From IMG/VR virus record IMGVR_UViG_3300037042_006844, positions 122,556 to 186,555 of that record: DNA of 64,000 bases. One strand, given 5' to 3'. A program made the position numbers and the translations under genes. A model generated the notes under the pieces. The model was not told the origin of the DNA. It saw nothing but the letters and a program-made list of their open reading frames with translations, and searched no databases. Below, in pieces: positions 16,641-63,305 of this stretch; the first letter of the stretch is position 1; each line of letters begins with the position of its first letter. This stretch comes from a virus.

Positions 16641-16680
16641 TCCTTGACTTCATAAAAAGCGGGTGTATCTTGGTATCAAG

Positions 16681-42422: not shown

Positions 42423-43403
42423 ATGAACGTGAACACTCTAAAGTTATTTGCGGGAACCAGCAACGTTCCACTTGCTGAACGTATAGCTTCCAATTTTTTG
42501 AACTCCAAACTCGGCGATATTTTTCACCACAAATTTCCCAGCGGAGAAACATATTGCCAATTTCGTGAGAATATTCGTGGGTGTGATGTGTTTTTGATTC
42601 AAAGCATCACTGCTCCCGCCAACGAAAATTTGATGGAATTGTTGGTGATGGCGGATGCTGCTAGACGCGCCAGTGCAGACCGCATTACTGCAATCATTCC
42701 CTATTTTGGCTATGCCAGACAAGATAGAAAAGAGAAAAGCAGGGTGCCGATCACTGCCAAGCTCGTTTTGGACTTGATCGAAGCGAGCGGAATTGACCGT
42801 GTGGTAACTATGGATTTGCACAGTCCACAGGTCAGTGGCTTCACCAACCTTCCGTTCGACCATCTGACCTTTGAACCCGTATTGAACAATTGGATTAGAA
42901 ACAAATACCATAGTTTGGCTTTGCGAGACAGTGTTATTTTGATGGCACCCGATGTTGGAGCCGTCAAACGTGTGGAAAAATACGCAACCACGCTTGGCAC
43001 TGACTTTGGATTCATCAGCAAAAAGCGTGTGGGTGATGATACGGTTGAATTGCAAAGCATTGTTGGTGACGTGGCTGACAAGCACGTTGTTATCATCGAT
43101 GATCTGACCGAGAGTTGCGGAACCATGATTCAAGCTGCCAAGGCTTGCAAACACAATGGAGCCAAAAATGTGACATGTGCGGTGACTCATGGAGCTTTCA
43201 CGAATATTGGTGTGGAACGTTTGTGTGAAACATCCAGCATCGATCATTTGGTTCACAGCAACACAGTGAATCATGCATGGGACACAAACATGGATATGTG
43301 CAAAGACCCTCGCAGCATCACACAGCTTGATGTCAGCATGTTGTTTGCCAAAGCAATCAGCAGCATTCACAACAACGAAAGCATCAGTGAATTATTTGTA
43401 TGA
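42423..43403 (+). CDS. ribose-phosphate pyrophosphokinase family protein (PRPS, or the ADPR pyrophosphokinase Adps of a NARP1 pathway)
   Basis: PRPS architecture: N-terminal domain, VVTMDLHSPQVSGFTNLPFDHL (flexible loop) and VVIIDDLTESCGTMIQAAK (PRPP-binding loop). The latter deviates from the canonical DDMIDTAGT. Confidence 0.8.
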   Translation: MNVNTLKLFAGTSNVPLAERIASNFLNSKLGDIFHHKFPSGETYCQFRENIRGCDVFLIQSITAPANENLMELLVMADAARRASADRITAIIPYFGYARQDRKEKSRVPITAKLVLDLIEASGIDRVVTMDLHSPQVSGFTNLPFDHLTFEPVLNNWIRNKYHSLALRDSVILMAPDVGAVKRVEKYATTLGTDFGFISKKRVGDDTVELQSIVGDVADKHVVIIDDLTESCGTMIQAAKACKHNGAKNVTCAVTHGAFTNIGVERLCETSSIDHLVHSNTVNHAWDTNMDMCKDPRSITQLDVSMLFAKAISSIHNNESISELFV

Positions 43404-43657: not shown

Positions 43658-43732
43658 GGGGTCTAAGCTTTAATGGTGAAGCAAGCGGCTTTTAACCGCT
43701 AGAAGACGGATCGTTACCGTCAGGCCCTACCA
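43658..43732 (+). tRNA. tRNA-Lys (anticodon UUU)
   Basis: Manual fold. Acceptor stem GGGGTCT/AGGCCCT with G1-U72 and U5-G68 wobble pairs. D arm GCTT-TAATGGTG-AAGC. Anticodon stem-loop AGCGG-CTTTTAA-CCGCT. T arm GACGG-ATCGTTA-CCGTC. ACCA encoded. Confidence 0.65.
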
Positions 43733-43748
43733 AATTTACAGTTAAAAT

Positions 43749-43824
43749 GGGGTTATCGTCTAATGGCTAGGACGGGAGACTTTCAATCTCCAAATCGTGG
43801 GTTCAATTCCCCGTAGCCCTACCA
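43749..43824 (+). tRNA. tRNA-Glu (anticodon UUC), with a T stem that pairs poorly
   Basis: Acceptor stem GGGGTTA/TAGCCCT (with wobbles). D arm GTCT…GGAC. Anticodon stem-loop GGAGA-CTTTCAA-TCTCC. T loop TTCAATT. ACCA encoded. Only 3 bp of the T stem pair in my fold. Confidence 0.45.
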
Positions 43825-44154
43825 TTTTCACTGTCAGGTCAATAATGACAGACCGTTAGCAATAAGCGGTGTCAATGTGCAAAAAAATTCAAGTGGTATA
43901 GCACATCTGACGTTATAGATTCCACTTGATGGTGGAGGGGCGCGGAATAGCCCCCTAGACAAACAGATTGACGGATTGATATAATCGAAGGATATTATAT
44001 CTAATGCAACAGATAAATCCGATATAATGGTTTGTCGAGAGTTTGACATAACTCTACAACAACATATGTCTGGTTGCGGGGATGAGCCAATGGTGTCTCG
44101 GTTATCCGATTGGATCGAGATTCAATAACCCTACAATCGGACCAATTTTATAAT

Positions 44155-44231
44155 TGCGGAATAGAGTTCTGGTGAACTCCGGTGTCTCATAAGCACTCGC
44201 TAGAAAAGTTCGATTCTTTTTTCCGCTACCA
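44155..44231 (+). tRNA. tRNA with anticodon CAU (Met or Ile2 type); mismatch at positions 1:72
   Basis: D arm GAGT-TCTGGTGA-ACTC. Anticodon stem-loop GGTGT-CTCATAA-GCACT, with G-U pairs. T arm AAAAG-TTCGATT-CTTTT. Acceptor 3' strand TTCCGCT plus ACCA. Confidence 0.5.
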
Positions 44232-44236
44232 ATTTC

Positions 44237-44330
44237 GGTTCTGTAGTTTAACTGGTAAAACCCCATACTTATAATATGGTAATCGCTAGATGTGCGTGAC
44301 TTCTCGGTTCGAATCCGAGCAGAACCACCA
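44237..44330 (+). tRNA. class II tRNA with a long variable arm and an apparent UAU anticodon
   Basis: Acceptor stem GGTTCTG/CAGAACC plus A and CCA. D arm GTTT-AACTGGTA-AAAC. Anticodon stem-loop CCATA-CTTATAA-TATGG. Variable arm of about 23 nt with a CGC/GCG stem. T arm CTCGG-TTCGAAT-CCGAG. Confidence 0.55.
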
Positions 44331-44394
44331 AATTTATGACGAACGTGTCATAAAAAAACAAAGTTACATTGAATTAATACTAATATAATAGAAT

Positions 44395-44721
44395 ATGAAA
44401 AAGATACTTCTAACAGTTGCAACCCTCTCTCTTCTTTTGACCGCTAGTGCGGTTGATACCAAGGAACTCTACGATTCACAATGCTCCAAGTGTCATGGAA
44501 CAAATGGCAATGGTGTGACCAAGATGGGTCAAAAGCTCAATGCGAAGGATTGGACCGATGTCAAGATTCAAGCCGCAATGACCGAGACCAACATGGTCAA
44601 GGCAATTAAGGTGGGCATTAAAGATGCCGAGGACAAGACTCGCATGAAGGCATATTCAGATATGACTGATGCCGATGTGACGAATTTGGTTACGTATATC
44701 AAAACCTTCAAAAAGCAATAA
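44395..44721 (+). CDS. small secreted c-type cytochrome
   Basis: Signal peptide and a single CSKCH haem-binding motif (CxxCH). Confidence 0.65.
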   Translation: MKKILLTVATLSLLLTASAVDTKELYDSQCSKCHGTNGNGVTKMGQKLNAKDWTDVKIQAAMTETNMVKAIKVGIKDAEDKTRMKAYSDMTDADVTNLVTYIKTFKKQ

Positions 44722-44739
44722 CATCGTATATAACATCGT

Positions 44740-45069
44740 ATGAAGAAATCATTGATGCTCGGGGTTTTGATTCTCAGCGGAATGTTGTGTCAAGCACAAA
44801 ACGCTGGAACCAACGAATTGTATAACAGCAAGTGCAGCAAGTGCCATGCAAAAGATGGCTCGGGCAACACACTGATGGGCAAAAAGTATAGTGCGAAAAA
44901 CTATACAGATGCAGCCGTCCAAAACAAGCTTACTGATGAAGCTTTTGATAAGTCCCTCAAAGAGGGTTACACCGATGCCGAAGGCAAGAAAGTAATGCAG
45001 GCTTTTCCAGAGCTTACGGCACTGGAGCGCAAGGAACTCATCAAAACGATGCGGTCCTTCAAGAAATAA
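44740..45069 (+). CDS. small secreted c-type cytochrome, a paralogue
   Basis: Signal peptide and LYNSKCSKCHAKDG. Paralogous to 44395..44721. Confidence 0.65.
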   Translation: MKKSLMLGVLILSGMLCQAQNAGTNELYNSKCSKCHAKDGSGNTLMGKKYSAKNYTDAAVQNKLTDEAFDKSLKEGYTDAEGKKVMQAFPELTALERKELIKTMRSFKK

Positions 45070-45088
45070 GATTGACATATCAATTTAT

Positions 45089-45161
45089 GCGGAATTAGTG
45101 TCATGAGGAGCACGGCTATCGACCAGATAGCAAGGTTGGTGCAAGTCCAAATTCCGCTCCA
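45089..45161 (+). tRNA. degenerate tRNA-like element with G at position 33, an ACC anticodon loop and a 4-bp T stem; possibly a pseudo-tRNA
   Basis: Acceptor stem GCGGAAT/ATTCCGC plus U and CCA. D arm GTGT…GCAC. Anticodon stem-loop GCTAT-CGACCAG-ATAGC. T arm TTGG-TGCAAGT-CCAA. Confidence 0.3.
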
Positions 45162-45169
45162 CTTTTTCA

Positions 45170-45245
45170 GGGCTCTTAGCTTAATTGGTTAAGCAGCAAA
45201 CTCATAATTTGTTGAGTGGGGGTTCGAGTCCCTCAGGGCCCACCA
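45170..45245 (+). tRNA. tRNA-Met (anticodon CAU)
   Basis: Acceptor stem GGGCTCT/AGGGCCC (with U-G). D arm GCTT-AATTGGTTA-AAGC. Anticodon stem-loop GCAAA-CTCATAA-TTTGT. T arm GGGGG-TTCGAGT-CCCTC. Discriminator A plus CCA. Confidence 0.7.
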
Positions 45246-45248
45246 TTT

Positions 45249-47681
45249 CTATCCTCTTCCAACAGTTGTTATTGGGTATGACGTAATTCTCGCCCAGTCT
45301 ATATCGAATTGTCGAACAGTAACAATGGTCGGCCAAATTTGGATACCAAATTGATATCCCGTGGTTGCTGGCATGATATATGAACTGGTTCCGTATTGAA
45401 TGCCATCGATCAAATAATGCATTTTGTTTGTAACGTTGTTTCTGACCAATTGGAATTTATGCCAGCCATCATCACCAGCCGATCCACTTCCGTATTTCAC
45501 AGACGTTGGGAATGATTGATTGATGCTGGCACTTCGCGCAGCATATCTCCAAGAACCAGTGATGGACCCCACCGATCCAGTTCTTTCAAAATAAAATCCT
45601 CTGACTACCCCTGTTGCCAATATATCACTAAACAATCCGACTCGCATTATATGATCTGGGGCTGTTTGAACATTTCTCATAATGGTTTCAAATGATCTAA
45701 AATCGCCCCATGCAATATGCATCGGTTGGGTTGGTGCCGCTATAAGCCCTGGTGTAAACGCACTCGGTGTAGTTGTGGAAGTGCTGCTTTGCCTTCTCAA
45801 CACACCAGGATGCCCCAGCGTTGAACTTAGCGTGGGAAGCATTGTTCCGTTATATATATTCCAACCATCATAGACTTGGTCTGCCGACTGGTGCGCCGAT
45901 AAAAATTCCCAAGATATATCTACAAGTCTGCTGGTATCTCTATACCCCAACAAATAGCTAGCTGACGTGGCATTTGTGGCGGTTGTTGTGCTTGTTGCAC
46001 TGGCAGCTTTCACTGCCCAACTGCTTGTGATTGGATACGTAGAAGCAGAAAGCAATCCTTTTTGATAATACGATCCGTGCTGACCATCGAGTTTATCAGA
46101 ATCACTGGAATAGCTGCTGAAGCTTGCGGACGTTACATGTTGCGCCCAACTGCTTGTTATTGGATACGTTGAGGCTGTGTGCAGCGTTGTTCCACCTCCT
46201 GGTGCCCAACTTGCACTACGGGCATTTTCAGCCCAGCTTGAGGTAAACGGATATGTCGAACCAGTATGCAGTGTCGTGCCGCCTCCACTTGATGGTGCCC
46301 AACTTGCACTACGTGCTTGATTTGCATAGCTGGCAGTTCCAGCAAATAATGATGCAGTAATTACTGAACAACTTATATGCCCCGCAACGTCCAGTGTATT
46401 TACTGGGTTGCTGACTCCTATACCAACTTTTCCGTTTGGTTGTGGTTGCCCAGTAGTCCCAGGAGTATTTGCGAATATAACATTGGCAATGTTTGTTTGA
46501 TCTGGCGCAGTGTTTATGGCTCCTCGACCAATTGCAATGCTGTTACCATACCCTCCTGTCGATGTATAATCTCCGATCAAAATTGAAGAGGAATTTCCCG
46601 CCGAGTTATTAACCGTGTCAGTCTGACCCGCTGCATAACCTATGAAAATGCTGTTATTTGCTGTAGTAGCCCCCGATCCAGCCCACGTTCCGATGAAATT
46701 GCTATTCAAAGCTCCAGTCGCCGAATCCCCTGCCGAATATCCAATGAAATTGCTGTTGTATGCATTTGAAGCATTAGCACCAGCAAAGTATCCAATGAAA
46801 TTGCTTTCATATGCGTTTATTGCATTAACACCCGCTCTGTCACCGATGAAATTACTACGTGCGGCATGATCAGCACTAGAGCCAGCAAAGTATCCAATGA
46901 AATTACTGTCGCCCGCATCGGTTGAGAATTTTCCCGCTTTATATCCAATGAAATTGCTGGCTCTGACACTACCAGATGCGCCATATCCCGTTTGATATCC
47001 TATAAAATTGCACTCCATGGCATCGGGGGCATTATATCCAGAACCACTTCCAATAAAATTGCTTTTGACGGGAGCACTTCCTGTATTGCTGACGATGTGC
47101 CCAATTAATATCAGATTTCCAGCAATACTGGCTCCCGTATTAATTTGAAGACCGTTGTTTGGAGAAATCGATGCGGATGCACTTCCACTTATGATTTTGG
47201 ATGGATCGCCGCCGCCAGGTGCCCAACTTGCACTGTGGGCATGGCTTGAACTATGAGCATGGCTTGCACTGTGGGCATGGCTTGCACTACGAGCATAACT
47301 AGATGATGTCGCATTATCGGCTTTCAAAGCATGGCTTGCACTGTGTGCGTGGCTTGAGCTTCTTGCCCAGCTTGCACTGTGTGCATGGCTTGAGCTTCTA
47401 GCATAGCTCGCCGACACAGCGTTTCTTGCCCAACTGCTTGTGATCGGGTATGATGAACCAGTGCGAATTCCTGGTAGATTTACCGAATTGCCGAGTCCGT
47501 CATAATAGCTAGCCGATGCTATTTGCACCAACCGTCCATATGTGGTTGATATTTGCTTTCCTAGTAAAGAATAGTTCATATTTAGAGTCAGTGTGTATAT
47601 ATAATTATCAATAATATCTTCCGTCCACAAACGAATTTCCTGCGGTGCTACCTGGGAAATAACTTGCCCCAGCACCACCAC
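45249..47681 (-). CDS. tail fibre or receptor-binding protein, paralogue 1, repeat-rich
   Basis: 810 aa. NSNFIGY.AG repeats and ARSASWAPGGG…STYPITSSWA repeats. Block SILIGDYTSTGGYGNSIAIG shared with the upstream paralogue. Confidence 0.65.
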   Translation of the reverse strand: MVVLGQVISQVAPQEIRLWTEDIIDNYIYTLTLNMNYSLLGKQISTTYGRLVQIASASYYDGLGNSVNLPGIRTGSSYPITSSWARNAVSASYARSSSHAHSASWARSSSHAHSASHALKADNATSSSYARSASHAHSASHAHSSSHAHSASWAPGGGDPSKIISGSASASISPNNGLQINTGASIAGNLILIGHIVSNTGSAPVKSNFIGSGSGYNAPDAMECNFIGYQTGYGASGSVRASNFIGYKAGKFSTDAGDSNFIGYFAGSSADHAARSNFIGDRAGVNAINAYESNFIGYFAGANASNAYNSNFIGYSAGDSATGALNSNFIGTWAGSGATTANNSIFIGYAAGQTDTVNNSAGNSSSILIGDYTSTGGYGNSIAIGRGAINTAPDQTNIANVIFANTPGTTGQPQPNGKVGIGVSNPVNTLDVAGHISCSVITASLFAGTASYANQARSASWAPSSGGGTTLHTGSTYPFTSSWAENARSASWAPGGGTTLHTASTYPITSSWAQHVTSASFSSYSSDSDKLDGQHGSYYQKGLLSASTYPITSSWAVKAASATSTTTATNATSASYLLGYRDTSRLVDISWEFLSAHQSADQVYDGWNIYNGTMLPTLSSTLGHPGVLRRQSSTSTTTPSAFTPGLIAAPTQPMHIAWGDFRSFETIMRNVQTAPDHIMRVGLFSDILATGVVRGFYFERTGSVGSITGSWRYAARSASINQSFPTSVKYGSGSAGDDGWHKFQLVRNNVTNKMHYLIDGIQYGTSSYIMPATTGYQFGIQIWPTIVTVRQFDIDWARITSYPITTVGRG
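47215..47440. repeat. tandem repeats of about 15 nt (GCATGGCTTGCACTG-like) inside the tail-fibre gene, encoding SAS(H/W)A(H/R) repeats
   Basis: Direct inspection of 47215-47440 shows at least 8 imperfect copies. Confidence 0.55.
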
Positions 47682-50172
47682 TGTTTATAATTGCAAACGA
47701 GTTGGCATTGTATCGTTGTCCAGATGCGGTTCCAACCCATGTAATTCCTGGAGCATACACAACGCCAAAAGTATCGGCTGCGCAAAACCATGCTGTGAAC
47801 GCAAGAGACCCAACTAAAGTAACTGTCCAACCACCATCAGCACTGACTGTGGCACTGTTTGAAGCATACCAGTGTCCCAACCCTCCAGCAACAATACTAT
47901 AACTTCCCCCAAGTCTCACATTTGCTCCGAACAGTGATGCTATATGCAAACTTCCAGCGGGAACCGTTCCAAACCGAATGCCCGCCCCAGTCGCAACTGT
48001 TGTATATGGTCCTGATGCATAAATACAATGTTGTGTGGTGGATCTTAATTCCATATTTTGGAACACGAATTTTCCGAACACGTTTGCCGCATATATCGAA
48101 TTTTTGCCAGCAGCAGGAGAACCAGAGAGAATGACATTTGCGGGAGTTCCAGAATTTCCATTAAATATTACTCGCCCCGATCCAACAACGTTTGACAGAT
48201 TTACAGTCTGCGCATATGTTCCATCTGCCAATTGAACCGTTACGTCGTATATTCCAGTATCAATTGACGAAACTACATCCATTGCTTTCTGCAAAGTTGC
48301 AAATGGAGCACCGACTGTCAATCCATTGTTTGAATCGTTGCCAGTTGTGCTAACATAATATGTTCTTTCCGCCAGCAACACTGTGCGAGTCGTTGCCGAT
48401 GTTGGTGCTGGAGCATATGATGCTGATACGGCATTTCTAGCCCAACTGCTTGTTATTGGATATGTGCTGCCAGTGCGAAGTGTTGATCCTCCACCCCCAC
48501 CACTGCTTGGTGCCCAACTTGCACTACGAGCTTGTTTTGCATAACTTGCTGTGCCAGCAAACAATGATGCGGACACAACCGTCGCCGATATGTTTCCGGC
48601 CACATCCAATGCATTAACTGGGTTGCTGACTCCTATACCAACTCTACCGTTGGATTGAACAGAGCCAGTTGTTGTGGTGCCAGTATAAATACCCGTTGCG
48701 AACAACACATTTCCAATGCTCACTTGTTCTGGTAGAGTATTTTGAACTCCCTGACCAATCGCAATGCTGTTGCTGTTACCACCAGTTGACGTAAAATCAC
48801 CAATCAGTATTGAAGATTTTCCTATCACTGAGTTATCAACGATATCAGCGTAACCTGCACTATAACCTATGAAAATACTGTTGTTGGCTTTGGGTGCGTT
48901 AACACCACACCAACGACCAATGAAATTGCTGTATGATGCGCTTACTGAGTTCTGTCCAGCAGCAAATCCTATGAAATTGCTGTTATTGGCTTCGGTTGCT
49001 TCAGAGCCAGCACTGACACCTATAAAATTGCTTTCATATGCATTTACAGCCCAGTTGCCCGAACCCATTCCAATAAAATTGCTGCTGTGGGCATTGGTGG
49101 CTTGTGATCCAGCACCCGCTCCAAAAAAATTACTGTTTGTGGCACTGACGGCGTTGATGCCAGCACTATTTCCCATGAAGTTGGAAAACGAGGCTTCAGC
49201 AGCATTGATACCAGCCCAAATTCCAATAAAATTGCTGTTTTCAGCATTTGTTGCTGCTTCGCCAGCTTGTGTTCCAATGAAATTGCTGTTGTTGGCGTTT
49301 GCTGCTTGATTTCCAGCACCGGCACCAACAAAATTGCTATATACCGCATATACTGCTTGATTTCCAGCACCATCTCCAACAAAATTGCTATGGTGGGCAT
49401 ATGATGCGCTGAGTCCAGCTTCATAGCCCAACAAATTGGTATTGGCTGGAGGAGTTTTTGTGTTGACGATATAACCAGTTATCAATACATCCCCTTCAAA
49501 ACTTGCAGATGTGTTGACTTGCAAGCCCCCAGCTGGCGAAATCGAGGCTGATACGCTGCCATTGATAATTCTGGTTGGTTCACCGCTACCACCCGGTGCC
49601 CAGCTTGCACTTCGAGCGTGGTTTGCATAACTGGATGATGATGCGTTTGAACTGATATTGATCAGCATTTTTCCAGCCGTTGTGTGTTGGTATAAACAAT
49701 ATCCAACCACAGTTGGCACTGCGTTTCCATCTGGGGGAGTCAATGAGTATCTACCAGGAGTTGTTCCGCTCAAATACAATAATGACCCAGCCGAATAGCC
49801 CGATGTATTGACATCATTGACTTGACCTTGGGCTGTAACGTATCCTTTGCTTGCACTGAGAATATTTTGAGCAGCTACACCAGCAACGTTGTATTTCTTC
49901 GTAACACCATCACTGATTGCTTTGAAACCGATTGGGTATGTTAGCAAAGACCCCGACAGTGTTATAGCATCACCCGCAGAAATATTTTCGCCAGCATAAA
50001 TTTGCCCAAGGGTCTCTTGACCAATTTTCAACGTCAATCCAGATTGATCGTTGTATACGGCGTATGTGTGGTTATCTTTGTCCCAAAACAGCAACCCTTC
50101 TTGCCATGCAGGTTTTGTTGCATTGGTAGCCGCTTGGATATACGAATTCTGATCTATTTGAAAAATGTGCAT
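47608..50172 (-). CDS. tail fibre or tailspike with a right-handed beta-helix (pectate-lyase-like, putative depolymerase) domain, paralogue 2
   Basis: 854 aa. YVSTTGNDSNNGLTVGAPFATLQKAM is the hallmark N-terminal cap of beta-helix tailspikes. Shares the NFIG repeats and SILIGDFTSTGGNSNSIAIG with paralogue 1. Confidence 0.65.
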   Translation of the reverse strand: MHIFQIDQNSYIQAATNATKPAWQEGLLFWDKDNHTYAVYNDQSGLTLKIGQETLGQIYAGENISAGDAITLSGSLLTYPIGFKAISDGVTKKYNVAGVAAQNILSASKGYVTAQGQVNDVNTSGYSAGSLLYLSGTTPGRYSLTPPDGNAVPTVVGYCLYQHTTAGKMLINISSNASSSSYANHARSASWAPGGSGEPTRIINGSVSASISPAGGLQVNTSASFEGDVLITGYIVNTKTPPANTNLLGYEAGLSASYAHHSNFVGDGAGNQAVYAVYSNFVGAGAGNQAANANNSNFIGTQAGEAATNAENSNFIGIWAGINAAEASFSNFMGNSAGINAVSATNSNFFGAGAGSQATNAHSSNFIGMGSGNWAVNAYESNFIGVSAGSEATEANNSNFIGFAAGQNSVSASYSNFIGRWCGVNAPKANNSIFIGYSAGYADIVDNSVIGKSSILIGDFTSTGGNSNSIAIGQGVQNTLPEQVSIGNVLFATGIYTGTTTTGSVQSNGRVGIGVSNPVNALDVAGNISATVVSASLFAGTASYAKQARSASWAPSSGGGGGSTLRTGSTYPITSSWARNAVSASYAPAPTSATTRTVLLAERTYYVSTTGNDSNNGLTVGAPFATLQKAMDVVSSIDTGIYDVTVQLADGTYAQTVNLSNVVGSGRVIFNGNSGTPANVILSGSPAAGKNSIYAANVFGKFVFQNMELRSTTQHCIYASGPYTTVATGAGIRFGTVPAGSLHIASLFGANVRLGGSYSIVAGGLGHWYASNSATVSADGGWTVTLVGSLAFTAWFCAADTFGVVYAPGITWVGTASGQRYNANSFAIINSGGAGASYFPGSTAGNSFVDGRYY

Positions 50173-50544: not shown

Positions 50545-51090
50545 ATGAATGTCCACGATCACCTAAAGCCGTTAACGGTAACGGAGATCAAAACTTATTA
50601 TCAGTCAAACACGATACCAGCAGCATCAGCCATGATGCACGTAACTGGGGATTTCAATCTGTCCACGTTGATTCGTAACAGCAACTTTTTTGGTTATGAG
50701 AAGGTATACTATGTGGGCGGTAGCAAGCAGTATGATCGTCGTGGCACCGTTGGAACACACAATTACGTCGATGTTAACTTCATCAAGACCGAAGAGGAGT
50801 TCGTCAAGGTTATGCGTGAGGATGGTTATAAGATAATTGCAATTGAAAACAACATAGAGCATCCATCCGACAGTTTTTTTAAGTTTTTCGATGCAATCCA
50901 AAACGTTGCTGAATTTGGCAAGCCCATCTTCATTTTTGGCGAAGAACAGCGCGGTCTCAGTGATTATATGCTGTATAACAGTGACCACATTTTGTTTATA
51001 CCAGGTAATGGGACCGTGCGCAGTCTGAACGTGGGGACTGCCAGTGGCATAGTTTTGTCATATTATTACGCCCGTTATTTTATGAAATAG
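50545..51090 (+). CDS. SpoU/TrmH-family (SPOUT) RNA 2'-O-methyltransferase
   Basis: IIAIENNIEHP, PIFIFGEEQRGLS and FIPGNGTVRSLNVGTASGIVLSYY match SPOUT motifs I-III. Confidence 0.65.
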   Translation: MNVHDHLKPLTVTEIKTYYQSNTIPAASAMMHVTGDFNLSTLIRNSNFFGYEKVYYVGGSKQYDRRGTVGTHNYVDVNFIKTEEEFVKVMREDGYKIIAIENNIEHPSDSFFKFFDAIQNVAEFGKPIFIFGEEQRGLSDYMLYNSDHILFIPGNGTVRSLNVGTASGIVLSYYYARYFMK

Positions 51091-51200
51091 CTCAGGGGGT
51101 GGTGTTGATTTTTATAGTTGACACCCGCCCATCTATGATCTATGATCCATTTATGCAGAACACAAACAAAAAATTTGACAAAGACCCGATTGGTTCCAGA

Positions 51201-52046
51201 ATGAAATCTTCTTACGAGGATCGGACTAGATATTGTCTGCCTCGTAGAACATACACCATTTTGCGTCTCGATGGCAAATCGTTTCATTTTTACACCCAAG
51301 ACCTCGACAAACCTTTTGATGCGGGTTTTATCGAAGACATGAATCGAGCCGTTGTCAACACGATTCATGAAATTTCACAAGGTGTTGCTTTTGCCTACGC
51401 ACAGTCTGACGAAATTTCAATTCTGCTCACCGATTTTGAGAATGATCAAACAGATGCTTGGTTTGGTGGCAATATTCAAAAAATGAGTAGTGTTGCTGCC
51501 AGCATTATGACTGCTCAATTCAACCGTTTCAGACATATTAGACATTACAACCAAGTTCTTGGGACTTTGAATTTGGCAGACCCAACAATTGCTGCGGATG
51601 TGAATGCAAAAAATCGACTGTCGCCAATTTGGCTGCCGTATTTTGATTGCCGAGCGTTTACCATTCCCGACAGAACCGAAGTTATGAATTATTTTCGGTG
51701 GAGGCAGCAGGATTGCATTCGCAACAGTTTGAGCATGGTCGCACAAAGCATGTTCAGTCACGGCGAATTACAGAATAAAAGCCAAATTGACATGCACGAA
51801 ATGTTGCACCAAAAAGGTGTGAACTGGGCAACCGATTATACCGCTGCCCAGAAGAACGGTAGAATTTTTGTGAAAGAAACCAAACCGACTGAACATATGA
51901 GCAATGTGATAAGTTGGGAGGCTGATATGGCGAACTACAAAGTGGTTCCGGTTCCAACGCACATCGTAAAATGGCAAGCCAATGAAGCTTGGGTCTTTAG
52001 CAAAGACGAAGGCAAACTGCTTGACATGATTCCTAAATATGCATAA
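51201..52046 (+). CDS. Thg1-like protein (tRNA-His guanylyltransferase / 3'-5' polymerase family)
   Basis: TYTILRLDGKSFHFYTQDLDKPFDAGFIEDMNRAVVNTIHEISQGVAFAYAQSDEISILL aligns with the Thg1 core (RVDGRAFHKFS…KPND…DIVLAYGQSDEYSF). Start placed at MKSSYED, by analogy with the Thg1 N-terminus; the track ORF starts at 51099. Confidence 0.7.
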   Translation: MKSSYEDRTRYCLPRRTYTILRLDGKSFHFYTQDLDKPFDAGFIEDMNRAVVNTIHEISQGVAFAYAQSDEISILLTDFENDQTDAWFGGNIQKMSSVAASIMTAQFNRFRHIRHYNQVLGTLNLADPTIAADVNAKNRLSPIWLPYFDCRAFTIPDRTEVMNYFRWRQQDCIRNSLSMVAQSMFSHGELQNKSQIDMHEMLHQKGVNWATDYTAAQKNGRIFVKETKPTEHMSNVISWEADMANYKVVPVPTHIVKWQANEAWVFSKDEGKLLDMIPKYA

Positions 52047-52446
52047 CAGTGACCATCACAAAATCAACAGACGGACGATCACAAAATGCCGAGTCTACGA
52101 CGAAAAATATCGTTGTTGGGACACATCTCCATTGATGATTTATCCGGGGGAGCCAATCGTCAAACAAGGAAGAATCATTCAATGGTGGACGGGATTGATT
52201 GATATTAACAAGAAGGAGATTTACGAAGGCGACATCGTTCGTAAATTGATGTCGCGGTCGCTGTGGGATGTTCCAGAATATGATCGCGGAGTGATTACGT
52301 GGGTAAGGGAATCATTTTGCATTAACCAGAAAAACATTGGCAGCACAAACATATCGGAATACGTTTCCTGTGATTGTTGCTCTACTGATTTGAATGTGAT
52401 CGGAAACATTTTCGATAACCCAGAACTACTATTGGACACCGTATGA
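52039..52446 (+). CDS. YopX-like protein
   Basis: C-terminal …VIGNIFDNPELL is typical of YopX-family proteins. Confidence 0.45.
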   Translation: MHNSDHHKINRRTITKCRVYDEKYRCWDTSPLMIYPGEPIVKQGRIIQWWTGLIDINKKEIYEGDIVRKLMSRSLWDVPEYDRGVITWVRESFCINQKNIGSTNISEYVSCDCCSTDLNVIGNIFDNPELLLDTV

Positions 52447-54288: not shown

Positions 54289-54894
54289 ATGCATACATCA
54301 ACACAAAAATTGATTAGATGGAGTGAGGAATTGGGAGTTGATCAACTAGCCAAAGTTGTGCTGGAATCTCCCAGATTCGACATTTGGAGTGGTAGCAGCA
54401 AACCAACGCAGCATCACTATGGCAAACATGGTTTGACCATTCATACACACGAAGTGGTCAACCTTTGTATGGAAATTCCACATACATTATGCGTTCAAGT
54501 CAACACAATCGAACTGTTTTTGTCTGCGGTGTTTCACGATTGCGGTAAAATGTTTGATTATAAACCAGCACGGGGAGATTTTGCTGGATCTATTGATTAC
54601 AATAATTGGGTCGGAACTGATCACAAACGGCTGATTCATCATGTTAGTCGATCAGCATTGATTTGGCAGACTGCATGGGACAATGCTGTATCAAACAACA
54701 TTTGTGACCGAGACCCAGAATTGGTGGATCGTGTATTGCACAACATATTGTCGCATCATGGTCAGCGTCAGTGGGGTAGTCCAGTGATGCCAAAAACCAA
54801 AGAAGCATGGCTTTTGCATTTGTGTGACGGCATCAGTGCTCGTATGAACGATGCCGATAAATGGGATTTTGTTGCAGATACACCGAAACTATAG
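54289..54894 (+). CDS. HD-domain phosphohydrolase
   Basis: His at IHTHE, HD motif at LSAVFHDCGK, downstream His and Asp at LSHHG and HLCD. Confidence 0.6.
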   Translation: MHTSTQKLIRWSEELGVDQLAKVVLESPRFDIWSGSSKPTQHHYGKHGLTIHTHEVVNLCMEIPHTLCVQVNTIELFLSAVFHDCGKMFDYKPARGDFAGSIDYNNWVGTDHKRLIHHVSRSALIWQTAWDNAVSNNICDRDPELVDRVLHNILSHHGQRQWGSPVMPKTKEAWLLHLCDGISARMNDADKWDFVADTPKL

Positions 54895-54917
54895 AATGTT
54901 TTGCCATATTTATAATC

Positions 54918-56084
54918 ATGGCAAATACAAACTATACTGATTTACTCTTCAAAGACAATTTTATTTCTTGGATCAACGCTATCGCTTCAAACGATAGCGA
55001 TGCAACCATTAAAACGGCTGCAAAAGAAATTTCCACCAACGTATCCACAGACACAGCGGTTGCTCCAAAACCATACTACAATGCGCTGTATAACAAATAT
55101 CAATTCAAAATTCTATCGACCAAAATAAATGGGGCGATTGGATCAGCACTGTATTCGTTCGTTGGGCAAAAACAAAAGCTGATCGGCACAATTCAAAAAA
55201 ATCCCGTTGTCAAAACGGTGACTCCTCCAACCCCAGTTCCTCCCGCACCCACTCCCACACCAGAAACAGTCTATACGTTTGGTGTGTTAGGCGACAGTGG
55301 TATGAGCGGGTTGTTGGAATACACAGAAGCAGTGGCTACACAAATTCAAAGCTACAATCCACAATGGGTTGTTCATGTTGGGGATTGCAATTACAGCAGC
55401 CCGGGATTGTTGTGGAACAATTTTTTGCAATATTGGCAACACGATTCTTTCTACGCCAGACACATGTATATAGCGTTTGGTAATCACGATCTGGATGTCG
55501 ATTACGGAGGGGCGATATTGACTGCTTTAGAATACACCACTGCTGCCGCGATTGGTCCTGAGAAACAAGATACGCATCTTCTGTGCTATGATTTTGTGCG
55601 TGGACCCGTTCATTTTTTCGTATTTAACACAGGCAACACAGCTTCTGGCGATCAAATGGATGAAGAAATTGACCCAAACATTCAACTGCAAGCTCAGATT
55701 GATGAACTTGAGCCATTGATGTTGGCATCCACATCTCCTTGGAAAGTGGTTGTGTGTCATAAACCTCCCTATACAAGTGAACAGGTGCATAGAGAGGGCG
55801 CAGCACCCATGCGCCTCGACTATGCTGCACTGGGAATTGATATAGTTCTCAGCGGTCACAGCCACGACTACGAGGTATACACCAACGGAGGCATTCAATA
55901 TTTTGTTCAAGGTTTGGGCGGAGCATCAAGACGTTGCGTGACCGAACCATTGGTTGAAGGTTATGTTACGGATTTCTGCCAAAATTGGGGTTATTCAATC
56001 TGTAATGTTACTTCAAAACACTTCACAATTGCCACGTTCGACATTGCTGGATACACCATCGACGTTCGCTCGTTCAGCAAATAA
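54918..56084 (+). CDS. calcineurin-like metallophosphoesterase (purple-acid-phosphatase-like)
   Basis: VHVGDCNY, FGNHDLD and GHSHDYE motifs. Likely start at MANTNYT; track ORF 54861..56084. Confidence 0.65.
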   Translation: MANTNYTDLLFKDNFISWINAIASNDSDATIKTAAKEISTNVSTDTAVAPKPYYNALYNKYQFKILSTKINGAIGSALYSFVGQKQKLIGTIQKNPVVKTVTPPTPVPPAPTPTPETVYTFGVLGDSGMSGLLEYTEAVATQIQSYNPQWVVHVGDCNYSSPGLLWNNFLQYWQHDSFYARHMYIAFGNHDLDVDYGGAILTALEYTTAAAIGPEKQDTHLLCYDFVRGPVHFFVFNTGNTASGDQMDEEIDPNIQLQAQIDELEPLMLASTSPWKVVVCHKPPYTSEQVHREGAAPMRLDYAALGIDIVLSGHSHDYEVYTNGGIQYFVQGLGGASRRCVTEPLVEGYVTDFCQNWGYSICNVTSKHFTIATFDIAGYTIDVRSFSK

Positions 56085-57959: not shown

Positions 57960-60659
57960 TCAATCTTCATCCCAAATTTTGATTTTGCTCCAGCTAGAGT
58001 CCTTGAAATAAATATCGGGTTCACCAAAATGATCCAGTGCTGCTTGCACAACATTACCACTGCCCCAATAGTTTCCAGTTATGAATCCTTCTGGACGAAT
58101 TTTTGGCAGCCATTGGGCAAGCAAACGCCAGTTATACTGATAGCTTTTGTATTCATTGAGATAAATCAGATCGATACTCCCTGGTTCAAACCGATCAGCA
58201 GCTTCCATTGCATCAACATCTTCAATGACTTTGACGCACGGATATGATGCTGTGCGCAGATTAAAATTGTGCCGCACATCATCCAACGCAATGCTTTTTG
58301 GCCAGCTATCATCAATTTTATCAAATTGATCTACGACCCACAGTTCTTCTGGTTGTAGATACTTTGCGAGCAACGATGTGGCTTCGCCTTGATAACAGTT
58401 GATTTCGACGATGCGTTTGATTTTGAAATTGCGCTCGGTTTGATTTTTGTTGACGTAATTACAGAAATCGATGAACCCTGTGAGATATATTTTGGCTGGG
58501 TTATCCAACATGCTCAAAAATTTGATATCACTATCGGTGGCAAAAAACTGCTCTTGAACACCTATGCCAATGCGGCTGTTTTGAATCATGCGCAATTTGT
58601 TTTTATTGCTTTGCATTCGCTTTTTGTTGATCCGCTTGACCCAACTACCATCTTCAAAATGGGCATCGATATTGCTCACCGTATCGGTGATAGTTTTGAC
58701 CACACTGTCGCTACCCCATTCTCCGCCACCAATCACGCCGCCATCGCGTAATTTGGGCAGATACAAATCCAACAACTGCTTGATCATGCTGGCTGAGTTA
58801 TTGGTTCCGATGTAAATGAAATCCAAACTGCCGTCCGCAAACTGTTTTGCCGCACCCACGATATCTGTGTCGTAGTGTCTAATACATGGATACTGCTTGG
58901 AACGCAGAAAAAAGTTGTGCTTTACATCATCCCATTTATGTTTGAAAATAGTTTCGTCGTCGTTAACAACGTCACCGCTGATGCGGCTTTCAAACGACTC
59001 GACTGCATGTAAACTCGTTGGATTGAATTTATGCGCAAAAATAGTGGTCAATTCTCCTTGGAAACTATTGAGTTCCAATATATTTTTGACTGGGGTTTTG
59101 CTGCTAACATAGTCGCACAAATCCAAGGCACCTTGAAGCGGGGCAGGCACAAAATATGGTGTGTCGAGAATGAAATCAATGCTTTGCTGGCTTACATAAA
59201 ATTGGTTGCTCACGCCTTGATCTGTTGCGGGAACTCCCAGACGAAACTTTTTAACTGACGTAATCAGTGGTATTGTTGCCATATGTTTTGTATAATAATC
59301 TGTATTATTAGATTCTGTTGGTTCTGTTAATTTTGTTGATCTTATTCTGGCTGAGTGAGTGATCCAAGTTGAATCTGAAAAGAAAACATCGGGTTCTCCA
59401 ATAGTCTCTAAACATGCATTGACCACCTCACCATTACCCCAACCAATCCCGGCAATAATGCCATTCTTTTTAAGTTTTGGTAATGCCCGTGCGATAAGCG
59501 ATTTCAAATAATCTTTATTGCTGTGCTCGTTGATGTAAACCAAATCAATACTATCATCCGCAAACAGGTCTGTCAACACAGTTTCGGGACTAAATTTGAG
59601 GGGCTTGACGCACGGATACGGTTTGATTCTGAATTTGAAATTCGATTCGACCTTTTGCATGTCCAAAGCCGACTGGGAAATTTTCGGCTGTTTGTCGAAC
59701 TTTTCAACGGCATACAAACTGGTTGGAGCTAGATATTTTGCAAACAGTTCAGTGGTCTCACCTTGATAGCAATTGATCTCCACAACGGTGTCCAGTTTTT
59801 GACCTTTTAGATGGTCAAAAAAACTTAAAATTGCTTTGGTTTGATCGGTCTGGTCGTTTTCCAACAACCAAGCAATATCATCGTCGCAAGCAGTAAACGA
59901 CTTGGATATGCTTACTCCCAATCGGGTATTTGGAAGAACATACAGACCCGCATTGCGTTTGATACGAGGCGTTACTTTTACCAACCAACTACTATCATCA
60001 AAATGTATATCGACATCGCCAAACGCTTCAATGATGGCTTTGGTCACTCCACCCTTGCCGAGATCGTGACCGCCCATGTAACCACCCAATTTAATTTTTG
60101 GTAGATATGTGTTGATGTCTCGTATCACGCCTTCATAAGTATGATCTCCGTCAATATACACAAAATCCAAACTGTTGTCCGCAAACATATCAACAGTGTC
60201 ATAGCTGAATTTTTTGATATGTCTGACACATTCAAACGGCTCGGTTCGTAATTTGAAATTGTAGCTGACATCGTCAAAATTTGCAAATGAGCTATCATCG
60301 TTCGCATCATATCCATTCACAAACGGATCGATGGCATACAAATCTTTTGGATTGAACTGCATTGCGAATAAACTGGTGCTTTCACCTTGATAGCTTCCGA
60401 TCTCCACCATTCGTTCAACGGTAGTATCATTTTTTACATGATCAATACATGCAAGAAGTCCACGCAGCCAGTTATTTTGAAATAACTCGTCGTGATTCAA
60501 GATATACTCAATGTTTTCCTTGGTGGCAAAAAATTGCCTACCACCGAGACCGGTGCCCAATCGCATACAAGGCAATGTTGTGCGTAACAATGAGTTATCC
60601 ATAACGTATTTTTTTAGTCTTTCAAGTATTGCAAATTTTTGGTGAAACACTGAAAGCAT
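57960..60659 (-). CDS. 899-aa protein made of four tandem TylF/CmcI-type methyltransferase-like domains
   Basis: Four repeats of about 200 aa, each with a G(S/E)(Y/F)QGE…(L/I)D(F/L)(V/I)Y(I/L)…G-rich…D(S/G)(S/T)W block. Only one domain keeps the catalytic DGDH signature (LDFVYIDGDH); the others read INEHS, IGTNNS and LNEYKS. Confidence 0.7.
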   Translation of the reverse strand: MLSVFHQKFAILERLKKYVMDNSLLRTTLPCMRLGTGLGGRQFFATKENIEYILNHDELFQNNWLRGLLACIDHVKNDTTVERMVEIGSYQGESTSLFAMQFNPKDLYAIDPFVNGYDANDDSSFANFDDVSYNFKLRTEPFECVRHIKKFSYDTVDMFADNSLDFVYIDGDHTYEGVIRDINTYLPKIKLGGYMGGHDLGKGGVTKAIIEAFGDVDIHFDDSSWLVKVTPRIKRNAGLYVLPNTRLGVSISKSFTACDDDIAWLLENDQTDQTKAILSFFDHLKGQKLDTVVEINCYQGETTELFAKYLAPTSLYAVEKFDKQPKISQSALDMQKVESNFKFRIKPYPCVKPLKFSPETVLTDLFADDSIDLVYINEHSNKDYLKSLIARALPKLKKNGIIAGIGWGNGEVVNACLETIGEPDVFFSDSTWITHSARIRSTKLTEPTESNNTDYYTKHMATIPLITSVKKFRLGVPATDQGVSNQFYVSQQSIDFILDTPYFVPAPLQGALDLCDYVSSKTPVKNILELNSFQGELTTIFAHKFNPTSLHAVESFESRISGDVVNDDETIFKHKWDDVKHNFFLRSKQYPCIRHYDTDIVGAAKQFADGSLDFIYIGTNNSASMIKQLLDLYLPKLRDGGVIGGGEWGSDSVVKTITDTVSNIDAHFEDGSWVKRINKKRMQSNKNKLRMIQNSRIGIGVQEQFFATDSDIKFLSMLDNPAKIYLTGFIDFCNYVNKNQTERNFKIKRIVEINCYQGEATSLLAKYLQPEELWVVDQFDKIDDSWPKSIALDDVRHNFNLRTASYPCVKVIEDVDAMEAADRFEPGSIDLIYLNEYKSYQYNWRLLAQWLPKIRPEGFITGNYWGSGNVVQAALDHFGEPDIYFKDSSWSKIKIWDED

Positions 60660-60848: not shown

Positions 60849-62160
60849 CTATGAACTACCCACCTGCTAAAGCAGGTGGGTTTCCACCGCAATAGTTATG
60901 AGTTTCTATCGGGTAGTTCCTACCCGTATTAAACGTTGTCTTTGGAAATGAGAAGTCCAAGATATTCTTGGCAGCATTCACATCTCTATCGTGTTTCTCA
61001 TTACAATCTGGGCAAGTCCATTCTCTATCATTTAATGTAAGAGAATGATTAACATATCCACAATGAGAACACGTCTTACTGGATGGTTCAAATCTACCTA
61101 TTTTTAGGAAGTTCTTACCATACCAGTCGCTTTTATATTGGAGCATATTTACAAATTTTCCCCAAGCATAATCTCCTATGAGTTTATTAGTTGGTGAATA
61201 GTTGTTCTTCTGCATCCCCCGAATGGTTAAATCCTCAATACAGATATTACCAATTTGGTTATCATTGGTTAGTTTGTATGAGAGTTTATCCAAGAAATCT
61301 TTGCGTTGTCTTGTTATTTTAGAATGGAGTTTGGTTATCTGCTCTTGCTTGGAGATATGAGCAGTAGAACCTTTAGTGAGTTGCTCCAAATCCTGTTGGT
61401 GTTTAGTAAGTTTATCAGCAGATTGTTTCAATACCTTCGGGTTCTCAATCTTTGTTCCATCATTCAGAGTAAGAAATGTTTTTACTCCAAAATCTATTCC
61501 TATTGCTTTATCCTTTTTTGGTGTTGGTTTCTTTGATAGTTCTTTTTCAACCTCTACAAGAATGGAAACATAGTATCGTTTATCTCTGTCTTGGGATACG
61601 ATTGCTTGTTTAATCGTTCCTTCTGCTTGTCGGTCAAAGATACATTTAATGCCTCCACGAAACTTTGGAATGACTAATCGCTTTCCATCATAGTTCAACT
61701 TAATGTTGTTATTAGTCATTGGGACAACGAACGATTTACGAGCATACTTCTTCGACTTAAACTTTGGAAATCCAGCATTGGAACGAAAGAAGGAAGTATA
61801 TGCTCTATCCAAGTTGAGGATGGATTGCTGTAGCGATTGAGAACCTATCTCACTCAACCATTCATTTGTCTTTTTCAACTTTGGAAGTTCAGTTGCCATA
61901 TCCTGCCAGTTCAATGTTTTCTTGGTTTCTTTGTAATGCTTAATCTTTACTTCAAGGAAATGGTTGTATATCCATCGGCAGTGTCCAAAATGCTTGGACA
62001 AAAGAACCTCTTGTTCCTTGGTAGGATATATTCTGTATTTGTAAGCAACGTTATACATTCTACAACATACATATCATTCACTTTCTAAAAACGATTAATT
62101 ATTTTTCAATGGGTCGCATTCATCCCATATGGGGTTTCTGCTCCCTCAAAGATAAATATA
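60849..62160 (-). mobile_element. IS200/IS605-family element carrying only tnpB (IS-2)
   Basis: TnpB 60856..62058. Perfect TAAA-loop hairpin CCCACCTGC-TAAA-GCAGGTGGG at 60859-80, which encodes the TnpB C-terminus. Hairpin CCCATATGGGG plus TTTCTGCTCCC beyond the start (62108-62160). Boundaries are approximate. Confidence 0.45.
60856..62058 (-). CDS. tnpB: TnpB (OrfB_IS605 type, with a zinc ribbon)
   Basis: YKYRIYPTKEQ N-terminus, DFGVKTF (RuvC I), CIEDL (RuvC II), CSHCG…CPDCN zinc finger and DRDVNAAKNI (RuvC III). Confidence 0.8.
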   Translation of the reverse strand: MYNVAYKYRIYPTKEQEVLLSKHFGHCRWIYNHFLEVKIKHYKETKKTLNWQDMATELPKLKKTNEWLSEIGSQSLQQSILNLDRAYTSFFRSNAGFPKFKSKKYARKSFVVPMTNNNIKLNYDGKRLVIPKFRGGIKCIFDRQAEGTIKQAIVSQDRDKRYYVSILVEVEKELSKKPTPKKDKAIGIDFGVKTFLTLNDGTKIENPKVLKQSADKLTKHQQDLEQLTKGSTAHISKQEQITKLHSKITRQRKDFLDKLSYKLTNDNQIGNICIEDLTIRGMQKNNYSPTNKLIGDYAWGKFVNMLQYKSDWYGKNFLKIGRFEPSSKTCSHCGYVNHSLTLNDREWTCPDCNEKHDRDVNAAKNILDFSFPKTTFNTGRNYPIETHNYCGGNPPALAGG

Positions 62161-62554: not shown

Positions 62555-62760
62555 GCATCTTGTTGGTTATAATGGTGGAATTCCATAGCCTCATTCTCGG
62601 TCATGCCATCGTCCATAAGCTTTTGCAGCACTTTGTCGGTATCATATACAACATATTCGCCGCTACCACTACGGGATCCAATACCAGCGATACAGTCGTC
62701 GTATCCATCCATTGTGATGAGTTCGTTCGTTTCAATATACTCCTGTAAACTTGTTTTCAT
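62500..62760 (-). CDS. hypothetical protein
   Basis: 86-aa ORF. Confidence 0.3.
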   Translation of the reverse strand: MKTSLQEYIETNELITMDGYDDCIAGIGSRSGSGEYVVYDTDKVLQKLMDDGMTENEAMEFHHYNQQDAWVGLNTPGFIVTMNSNR

Positions 62761-63305
62761 TTGGGGCTTAGATATCCGTGCTTAATGTAGTGAATAATGT
62801 TTTCTCGTCCAACCGGGTCCATGCTGTGAACCAAAAACGATGGATGTGCTACGCCCTCTTTTCTGCATTCTTCGCACAAAAATCTGGCGCAGTCATAACC
62901 AGTTTTTTCGTCAGTGATCGGACCATCATAATGATGATCATTCTCCTCCAGAATGTGGTCGTAACAAACGAACTCAGGAATTCCTTTGCTGCGAATAACA
63001 TCGCAAAATGCATCGTAGTTTCTCACAATTGTCCATTCAGTTGGAATGGTTGGGAGTGTAACCCAATAAACCCAATCAGGCATTCGGATATCGTCAAGAA
63101 AAAGATAGTATGGTTGCATAGAGTTTTCTTCCAGATGTAGAGTATACATCACTTCTCCATCGTTGTAAAGACAATCGTTGGTTCTCTCGACCTTTTTGAC
63201 CACGATCCCATTTCTGCCATAATGGGCAATAATTTCGTCCAACTGTTCGGCAGTTTTGACTTTATGTAGCTGAATTGAATTGTTGTTGATAATATCTCGC
63301 ATCAT
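62757..63305 (-). CDS. hypothetical protein
   Basis: 182-aa ORF. Confidence 0.45.
   Translation of the reverse strand: MMRDIINNNSIQLHKVKTAEQLDEIIAHYGRNGIVVKKVERTNDCLYNDGEVMYTLHLEENSMQPYYLFLDDIRMPDWVYWVTLPTIPTEWTIVRNYDAFCDVIRSKGIPEFVCYDHILEENDHHYDGPITDEKTGYDCARFLCEECRKEGVAHPSFLVHSMDPVGRENIIHYIKHGYLSPK

Follow-up and report, generated by a model that had tools for sequence, protein, structure and literature searches.

What would a phage do with a protein of the Thg1 family? This question is raised by a 64,000-nucleotide (nt) stretch of viral DNA, positions 122,556 to 186,555 of IMG/VR record IMGVR_UViG_3300037042_006844. This whole stretch is referred to here as the window, and its numbering is used throughout unless another genome or locus is named. 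Its plus strand carries a gene for a Thg1-like protein (TLP) at 51153-52046, predicted to encode 297 amino acids (aa) and recognised by matches to Pfam, to PHROG and to the bacterial enzyme BtTLP as well as by a start column shared with its homologues. The initial annotation read the gene as a phage-encoded Thg1-like 3'-5' nucleotidyltransferase, and profile matches in Pfam, PHROG and the Protein Data Bank (PDB) bear this out. For its function we lean, with modest confidence and by analogy with characterised relatives, towards general templated repair of tRNA 5' ends, including the restoration of a lost G-1.

The phage protein is a member of the Thg1/TLP family

Profile searches, the check that had been proposed for this gene, place the protein in the Thg1/TLP family. 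The Pfam Thg1 model (PF04446) matches with E=8e-26 and 90.9 bits against a gathering score of 29.2 bits, over profile positions 3-130 of 130, and PHROG 4717, labelled 'tRNA-His guanylyltransferase', matches with E=6.9e-69; no NCBIfam model matched the TLP. The best match among solved structures is 4kgk (BtTLP; E=1.2e-38, 136.6 bits), and other solved relatives score lower, namely Candida Thg1 (55.7 bits), the archaeal enzyme MaTLP (40.6) and human Thg1 (40.3). The conservation of the catalytic core had been noticed correctly, but its extent had been put at about 60 residues; the similarity spans about 230-250 residues, from residue 29 to 261 of the open reading frame (ORF) in the comparison with BtTLP and from 28 to 280 in that with PHROG 4717.

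An AlphaFold2 model built from 26 homologues (mean predicted local distance difference test score, pLDDT, of 79; predicted template modelling score, pTM, of 0.74) is predicted to have the polymerase-like palm fold of the Thg1/TLP structures. Foldseek aligned this model to the BtTLP chains (4kgk/4kgm) with a target-normalised template modelling (TM) score of 0.85-0.89, E of about 1e-18 and 30-33% identity, and to human Thg1 with a target-normalised TM score of 0.65-0.70. Thg1 and TLP chains account for all 32 PDB matches at E<=0.001.

The residues of BtTLP for metal binding, 5'-end activation and nucleotidyl transfer have been described (most roles from PMC3701042). We number the residues of the phage protein as in P0001, the 303-aa protein called by the Joint Genome Institute (JGI), which starts at 51135. 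All 12 catalytic or nucleoside triphosphate (NTP)-binding residues of BtTLP are present: E12, R28, D30, K43, S74, D75, E76, K99, R131, R147, N154 and M158 correspond to E28, R44, D46, K59, S91, D92, E93, K116, R173, R190, N197 and M201 of P0001, respectively. More specifically, R-L-D at 51264-51272 (plus strand) supplies the NTP-binding Arg and the first metal-binding Asp (BtTLP R28 and D30), and S-D-E at 51405-51413 (plus strand) the activation Ser, the second metal-binding Asp and the third carboxylate (BtTLP S74, D75 and E76). The catalytic carboxylates, whose absence from an alignment had been named as grounds for doubt, are all in place. These three residues, D46, D92 and E93 (codons 51270-51272 and 51408-51413), are equivalent to D30, D75 and E76 in BtTLP and to D29, D76 and E77 in the human enzyme, and are invariant in 26 homologues. 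Across these homologues 11 of the 12 active-site residues do not vary, the exception being K59, which is either Lys or Arg. Judged from its sequence, the TLP gene is apparently intact and looks functional.

The protein further carries the TLP-type motif WRQQDCIRNSLSMVA (51699-51743, plus strand), for which BtTLP has WRQQDASKNSISMVA and Candida Thg1 WRQVDCHINNLY. In alignment A1, which comprises 26 clade members of the TLP, W189, R190, N197 and M201 are invariant. The segment that separates TLPs from eukaryotic Thg1 reads WRQQDCIRNSLS in the phage protein, WRQQDASKNSIS in BtTLP and WRQVDCHINNLY in Candida Thg1; because of its form, WRQQDCIRNSLS, the phage protein is by sequence type a bacterial-type TLP and not a true Thg1.

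Two regions are more variable. At about residues 137-167 (51543-51635, plus strand), after the long palm helix, lies an insert of about 25-30 residues that varies in length and sequence in A1, has a pLDDT of 55-67 in the model and splits the HMMER match, being absent from BtTLP. The C-terminal beta-region and helix (51888-52043, plus strand) contain a variable hairpin and end in a clade-conserved tail, W..AWVF.KDEGKLL.MIPKY. The hairpin strands of the model (260-264 and 269-273), in a variable region of moderate model confidence, align to a hairpin of MaTLP, and we infer that the variable hairpin corresponds to the beta-hairpin by which MaTLP binds the tRNA elbow. Two residues before W280 the phage protein has Ile, at a position that is Arg in most of the 26 aligned members of the clade.

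Start of the gene

A 315-codon ORF on the plus strand (51099-52046) covers the interval first annotated, with the same stop at 52046. The start chosen then, 51201, did not hold: it is an internal in-frame ATG, 48 nt too far downstream, and the BtTLP alignment begins 18 nt upstream of it, at ORF residue 29 (51183), where DPIGSR is aligned with D2-SIGDR7 of BtTLP. A start at 51201 would cut off these conserved N-terminal codons (51183-51200, plus strand; aligned to BtTLP residues 2-7), among which A1 shows no variation at D17 and R22 and almost none at G20. The best candidate from the alignment is ATG 51153, since every homologue in A1 (25) begins at its column; one of these has the N-terminus MRNTSKRFDKDPLG, compared to MQNTNKKFDKDPIG in the window protein. 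Alternative plus-strand starts are 51135 (the JGI call) and GTG/TTG codons at 51099-51105. A promoter-like site, TTGACA-N17-TATGAT (51118-51146, plus strand), ends 6 nt before ATG 51153. It is a consensus match only, fitting 11 of 12 positions and joint best in the region, and because the 16 such sites of the region are not above the number in shuffles (12.4 +/- 3.1), we regard it as a lead only.

Source phage and spread of the family

The window is phage DNA, as indicated by rIIA (E=2e-107), rIIB (E=7e-61), a T4 Rnl1-type ligase PHROG and a tail-spike-like protein; two TnpB genes and a GIY-YIG homing-endonuclease domain are present as well. A protein identical to the TLP has been recorded on a 303,564-bp JGI contig under the name 'tRNA(His) 5'-end guanylyltransferase', which makes the source a jumbo phage, and relatives are found in IMG/VR. 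Megablast against 50,697 GenBank phage records returned no match. With tblastn, 161 of these records were found to have a TLP homologue, every match being below 60% identity and most of the records annotated as tRNA-His guanylyltransferase. A collection clustered at 90% contains 3019 homologues at E<=1e-5, and there are 5169 clusters at 50% identity at E<=1e-3, including 804 at E<=1e-30. Relatives are encoded in 70 IMG/VR loci, and 15 of their contigs are at least 200 kb long. A motif scan of one genome per species (185,579 species) used clade-specific patterns, so that bacterial TLPs such as BtTLP lay outside it, and found two contigs only, from metagenome-assembled genomes labelled Gammaproteobacteria and Methanobacterium. 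These two are probably mis-binned viral DNA, and for this reason we make no host assignment from them; with only two contigs among so many species, the TLP clade looks essentially viral.

Thg1-like proteins had been called uncommon in phages. This is true numerically (161 of 50,697 records), but phage copies have a PHROG of their own and have already been discussed in papers. In 2010 Anantharaman, Iyer and Aravind reported that bacterial Thg1 homologues are linked with genes for polynucleotide kinase, Macro proteins and RNA ligase, and proposed a role in tRNA repair (PMC2904730); in 2013 a paper on Bacillus phage Bc431v3 drew attention to its Thg1-type gene (PMC3601020); and a 2021 survey of jumbo phages counted Thg1 among the sporadic components of phage RNA-repair systems, with the restoration of 5'-end nucleotides as its task (PMC7824862). 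Phage TLPs have been known for more than 10 years; what is new here is a divergent member with at most 62% identity to anything on record.

Genomic context of phage TLPs

The viral loci and contigs fetched for comparison are labelled with L-numbers (L001 etc.). The strongest contextual link to tRNA is provided by TLP genes in tRNA arrays: in L024-L027 the TLP lies inside a dense array, the gene order in L025 being Pro, His, Leu, TLP, Leu, Trp. Genes for RNA repair are found close to other TLPs. In a clade of 13 loci an RNA ligase gene (PF09414) is directly upstream of the TLP and a CCA-adding enzyme is encoded about 8 kb away; Mycobacterium phage Hannaconda has a polynucleotide kinase gene 0.9 kb downstream of its TLP, and Xanthomonas phage XacN1 an RNA ligase gene 4 kb from it. 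RNA ligase, TROVE, SpoU and PTH2 genes lie within 10 kb of the TLP in L007, as does PTH2 in L009. Bc431v3 has no tRNA gene within 20 kb of its TLP.

The window itself contains a cluster of five tRNAs (43658-45245, plus strand; ARAGORN and Rfam), namely Lys-UUU, Glu-UUC, a CAU tRNA with U1.U72, a 94-nt Ile-UAU and Met-CAU. The initial annotation had the TLP near this cluster. Both are in the same window, but 5.9 kb lie between the end of the cluster and the start of the TLP downstream, a distance that includes two minus-strand genes (45249-50172). Its remark that no tRNA-His is visible in the 64-kb window was confirmed by ARAGORN and Rfam.

Three further genes look like a dispersed RNA-repair toolkit. 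They encode a T4 Rnl1-type RNA ligase with a KLDG motif (26080-27237, plus strand; PF09511 E=5.5e-9; PHROG 562 E=9.8e-35; TIGR02308 E=6.5e-18, below its cut-off), a cyclic-phosphate processing receiver (cREC_REC) domain protein with a predicted role in RNA-end healing (62757-63305, minus strand; PF20274 E=8.1e-19) and a Macro-domain protein (16663-17145, plus strand). Downstream of the TLP lie genes for a YhaM-like HD-domain protein (54289-54894, plus strand; PF01966 E=1.1e-4; YhaM model E=1.3e-12, below its cut-off) and for a calcineurin-type phosphoesterase (54861-56084, plus strand; PF00149 E=5.5e-14), one of two in the window. The distance from the TLP is 2.2 kb for the HD and phosphoesterase genes, 10.7 kb for cREC, 24 kb for the ligase and 34 kb for Macro.

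The idea that the TLP serves tRNA maturation or repair had been drawn from its SPOUT methyltransferase neighbour and the tRNA cluster. The idea gains support from other context, and tRNA arrays, ligase, polynucleotide kinase and CCA-enzyme genes speak for it better than does the SPOUT neighbour, which is a weak argument given how rarely the two genes are found together (see below).

A probable role in tRNA 5'-end repair

By analogy with BtTLP and MaTLP, the phage enzyme would use ATP or GTP to activate the 5'-monophosphate end of a tRNA, or would start directly from a 5'-triphosphate end, and would then add nucleotides in the 3'-5' direction with the 3' strand of the acceptor stem as template. 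Truncated tRNAs would be rebuilt at the 5' end up to position +1 and, on tRNA-His, G-1 would be restored opposite C73. The TLP would be one item of a dispersed set for tRNA maintenance and RNA repair that includes the phage tRNAs, the Rnl1-type ligase, the cREC and Macro proteins, the phosphoesterases, the HD protein and a TrmH-like methyltransferase, and the effect of the set would be to maintain a usable tRNA pool in infected cells. TLPs are known to repair 5'-truncated tRNAs independently of the anticodon (PMC4820378). This property, the TLP-type sequence and the tRNA-His data set out below are the reasons why we rank general repair above a dedicated tRNA-His role, a non-tRNA substrate and a module with the SpoU methyltransferase.

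Several observations weigh against general tRNA repair. A tRNA gene is present within 10 kb at 28 of 76 TLP loci (raw count), and TLP neighbours vary by lineage, with NAD-salvage, SIR2 and Macro-type genes in one clade. The RNA-repair genes of the window are scattered rather than in one operon with the TLP, and no gene in the 64 kb was recognisable as a polynucleotide kinase. Our literature search found no experiment or enzyme assay on any phage TLP. Nor did the literature searched contain a defence nuclease that cuts the 5' strand of tRNA; T loops, 3' tails and the 3' side of the acceptor stem are cut instead. Other tRNA-targeting defence nucleases cut anticodon loops, and none of these nucleases is known to remove 5' nucleotides from tRNA.

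The name used by JGI and by most GenBank records implies a dedicated tRNA-His enzyme that adds or maintains G-1 on phage or host tRNA-His for charging by histidyl-tRNA synthetase. We consider this unlikely, although in L024 and L025 the TLP is encoded just downstream of tRNA-His with one tRNA-Leu between, and although MaTLP also has an anticodon-dependent mode of G-1 addition (PMC4820378). The protein is of the TLP and not the Thg1 type, tRNA-His is encoded within 10 kb at just 2 of 76 TLP loci, and the window has none. Moreover, the tRNA-His genes of XacN1 (G at 48818 of that phage) and of L025 both encode G-1 opposite C73, with CCA. Bacterial RNase P leaves an encoded G-1 opposite C73 in place, so a guanylyltransferase is not needed for the maturation of these two tRNAs. 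The case differs in L024, where the tRNA-His gene has T at -1 and U73, shows two mismatches in the acceptor stem and does not encode CCA, and where G-1 would need to be added post-transcriptionally. A non-tRNA substrate seems to us quite improbable. In that case other small RNAs or broken transcripts would have their 5' ends extended or activated (5'-App) by the TLP and might be passed on to the phage RNA ligase; small-RNA repair or ligation via 5'-App has been proposed from the linkage of Thg1 homologues to polynucleotide kinase, Macro and ligase (PMC2904730). The 48 TLP loci of 76 that have no tRNA gene within 10 kb fit such a role, as do the 13 loci with an RNA ligase gene directly upstream. 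However, the characterised TLPs in the literature searched all act on tRNA (PMC3701042, PMC4820378), the model keeps the C-terminal hairpin region that is the tRNA-elbow binder in MaTLP, and TLP genes embedded in tRNA arrays point to tRNA.

The adjacent gene suggests yet another arrangement. As first noted, the TLP is next to a SPOUT methyltransferase: a TrmH-like SpoU 2'-O-methyltransferase (50545-51090, plus strand; PF00588 E=5.5e-22; closest to TrmH/Gm18 enzymes) is encoded 62 nt upstream on the same strand. The two could form a dedicated module in which the 5' end is repaired and a protective 2'-O-methyl is then added, like bacterial Pnkp/Hen1, and SpoU genes of three subtypes do occur within 10 kb of the TLP in L001, L004, L005, L007 and L072; in total, a SpoU gene of any kind lies close to the TLP at about 6 of roughly 75 loci. 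Yet relatives of this SpoU subtype are present in at least 153 viral stretches, and among the 80 loci that were fetched and checked, only one has a TLP within 10 kb, on which count a conserved two-gene module was rejected. LR756508 has the SpoU gene and no TLP within 15 kb, a strong promoter-like site separates the two genes here, and the SpoU protein resembles TrmH, whose methylation target is G18 of the D loop rather than the acceptor end. We therefore hold such a module to be very improbable.

If general 5'-end repair is the function, a further and rather doubtful step is to suppose that phage TLPs are a form of counter-defence, rebuilding tRNA 5' acceptor ends shortened by an undescribed host nuclease or exonuclease with the 3' strand as template. 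The TLP would act alongside the phage ligase, end-healing enzymes and replacement tRNAs. Both tRNA-Lys(UUU) and tRNA-Glu(UUC) may be such replacement tRNAs here, because they are classic anticodon-nuclease targets. If counter-defence proved true, the TLP would mark an undescribed class of tRNA damage in phage-host conflict, and the study of a tractable TLP-carrying phage might reveal a new target of anti-phage defence.

Features of the tRNA cluster

Editing of phage tRNAs at the 5' end, in which a TLP would correct mismatches of the acceptor stem as in amoebozoan mitochondria, was considered and rejected. Among 177 parsed tRNAs from the window and a subset of the fetched loci, fragmentary or low-quality ARAGORN calls aside, 1:72 mismatches occur only in tRNAs with a CAU anticodon (window 44155-44231, L006, L018, L025 and L062). 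Confined in this way, they are an initiator-tRNA signature and not evidence for editing. The CAU tRNA of the window (44155-44231, plus strand) is initiator-like in its U1.U72 but has no three G-C anticodon-stem pairs as is usual, and it scores below the Rfam gathering score; the same U1.U72 is found in CAU tRNAs of the TLP-carrying loci L018 (1940-2015) and L025 (1815-1890). G1.U72 wobble is present in tRNA-Lys(UUU) (43658-43732, plus strand) and tRNA-Glu(UUC) (43749-43824, plus strand), and in 42 of the 177 parsed tRNAs. The former also has an unusual T loop, AUCGUUA, with positions 54/58 swapped to A and U.

The tRNA Ile-UAU (44237-44330, plus strand) reaches 94 nt because about 21 inserted nucleotides form a long variable arm (Rfam 60.2 bits, insert looped out). 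Full-length homologues with 77% identity over 95 nt, insert included, are present in 13 other viral contigs (L086-L106), and since they keep the insert, the class-II-like shape is conserved. A tRNA-like element at 45089-45163 (plus strand), 7 nt before tRNA-Met, was called by neither ARAGORN nor Rfam. Its 7-bp acceptor stem (GCGGAAU/AUUCCGC) pairs without mismatch and leads into U-CCA, and its D and anticodon arms are well formed; position 33 is a G, the T stem has 4 bp and the T loop is non-canonical. The fold z-score of the element is only -2.15, and L097 holds a 75%-identical copy. Between tRNA-Glu and the CAU tRNA, a non-coding spacer of 330 nt (43825-44154, plus strand) has a predicted fold far more stable than that of shuffled sequence (z = -4.1, reached by 0 of 100 shuffles), with an 8-bp hairpin ending in CCA towards the 3' end; Rfam gave no match to this spacer, and none of the fetched loci contains a homologue.

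Two small cytochrome c genes lie inside the cluster (44395-44721 and 44740-45069, plus strand; PF00034 E=5.5e-15 and 1.4e-4), with CxxCH motifs and hydrophobic N-termini that are putative signal peptides. The two large minus-strand genes that separate the cluster from the SpoU-TLP block (45249-50172) encode 810 and 854 aa, the second with SNF.G.GAG.-type repeats and a weak tail-spike PHROG match (E=3e-8).

Other genes of the window and of related loci

The TLP gene overlaps by its last 8 nt the start of a YopX-family gene (52039-52446, plus strand; PF09643 E=3.7e-14), and on account of this overlap the two are probably co-transcribed; in L001 a YopX homologue is 2.5 kb downstream of the TLP. 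NAMPT and phosphoribosyl pyrophosphate (PRPP) synthase, both of NAD salvage, are encoded at 40159-41556 and 42423-43403 (plus strand), and in 9-14 other viral loci both are again encoded no more than 10 kb from the TLP, frequently alongside SIR2. A CoaD-CoaE fusion (20434-21567, plus strand) joins pantetheine-phosphate adenylyltransferase (TIGR01510, 162 bits against a 103-bit cut-off) to dephospho-CoA kinase, so that the last two steps of coenzyme A synthesis are phage-encoded; L003 has a homologue. The two TnpB (IS605 OrfB / Cas12f-like) genes are at 24855-26051 and 60856-62058 (minus strand), and one of them abuts the RNA ligase gene. An 899-aa protein (57960-60659, minus strand) has three Methyltransf_24 domains (E=2.4e-36) and falls in a DNA methyltransferase PHROG class, with a single-domain paralogue at 13674-14345. 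Two jumbo-phage contigs that encode a close TLP relative and PTH2 peptidyl-tRNA hydrolase also encode, respectively, a TROVE (Ro60-like) protein (L007, 4215-5594) and a major-vault-protein-like protein with Vault_3 and MVP_shoulder domains (L009, 1-1693).

Comparison with known enzymes

BtTLP (PDB 4KGK/4KGM) is the closest solved relative of the phage TLP, sharing all described active-site residues and the WRQQD..NS.SMVAQ motif. The phage protein differs from it in the extra insert after the long palm helix and in a longer C-terminal region that ends in the AWVF.KDEGKLL.MIPKY tail of its clade. BtTLP is a cellular enzyme that prefers 5'-end repair in vitro, favouring 5'-truncated non-His tRNAs by orders of magnitude, a preference that the phage TLP would be predicted to share.

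Annotated phage proteins of PHROG 4717 belong to the same family, with 37-44% identity over 74-86% of the protein; examples are ORF126 of Xanthomonas phage XacN1, gp143 of Bacillus phage Bc431v3, a protein of Bacillus phage Eldridge and gp112 of Mycobacterium Omegavirus. Their phages are large, like the source phage, and often carry the TLP near RNA ligase or polynucleotide kinase genes. Compared to them, the TLP of the window is without a close cultured relative, the nearest proteins (52-62% identity) being encoded on uncultured metagenome contigs.

With eukaryotic Thg1 (human 3OTB, Candida 3WBZ, yeast 5XOX) the family shares the palm fold, the catalytic carboxylates and a two-step 3'-5' chemistry (PMC3701042), but similarity to the phage protein amounts to only 40-56 bits and 18-28% identity, and the HINNLY form of the motif is absent from the latter. 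Thg1 is described as specific for tRNA-His via the anticodon and as adding G-1 opposite A73 without a template (PMC4820378, PMC9508852); by analogy with characterised TLPs, the phage enzyme would be expected to be template-dependent, unlike Thg1. MaTLP from Methanosarcina acetivorans (PDB 5AXK-5AXN) matches the phage TLP with E=2e-9 and 23-26% identity. Its complex with tRNA revealed anticodon-independent binding and a flexible beta-hairpin (R198-R215) that measures the length of the acceptor stem (PMC4820378). At the position aligned to this hairpin, whose conserved Arg in MaTLP is R215, the model of the phage protein has its variable hairpin.

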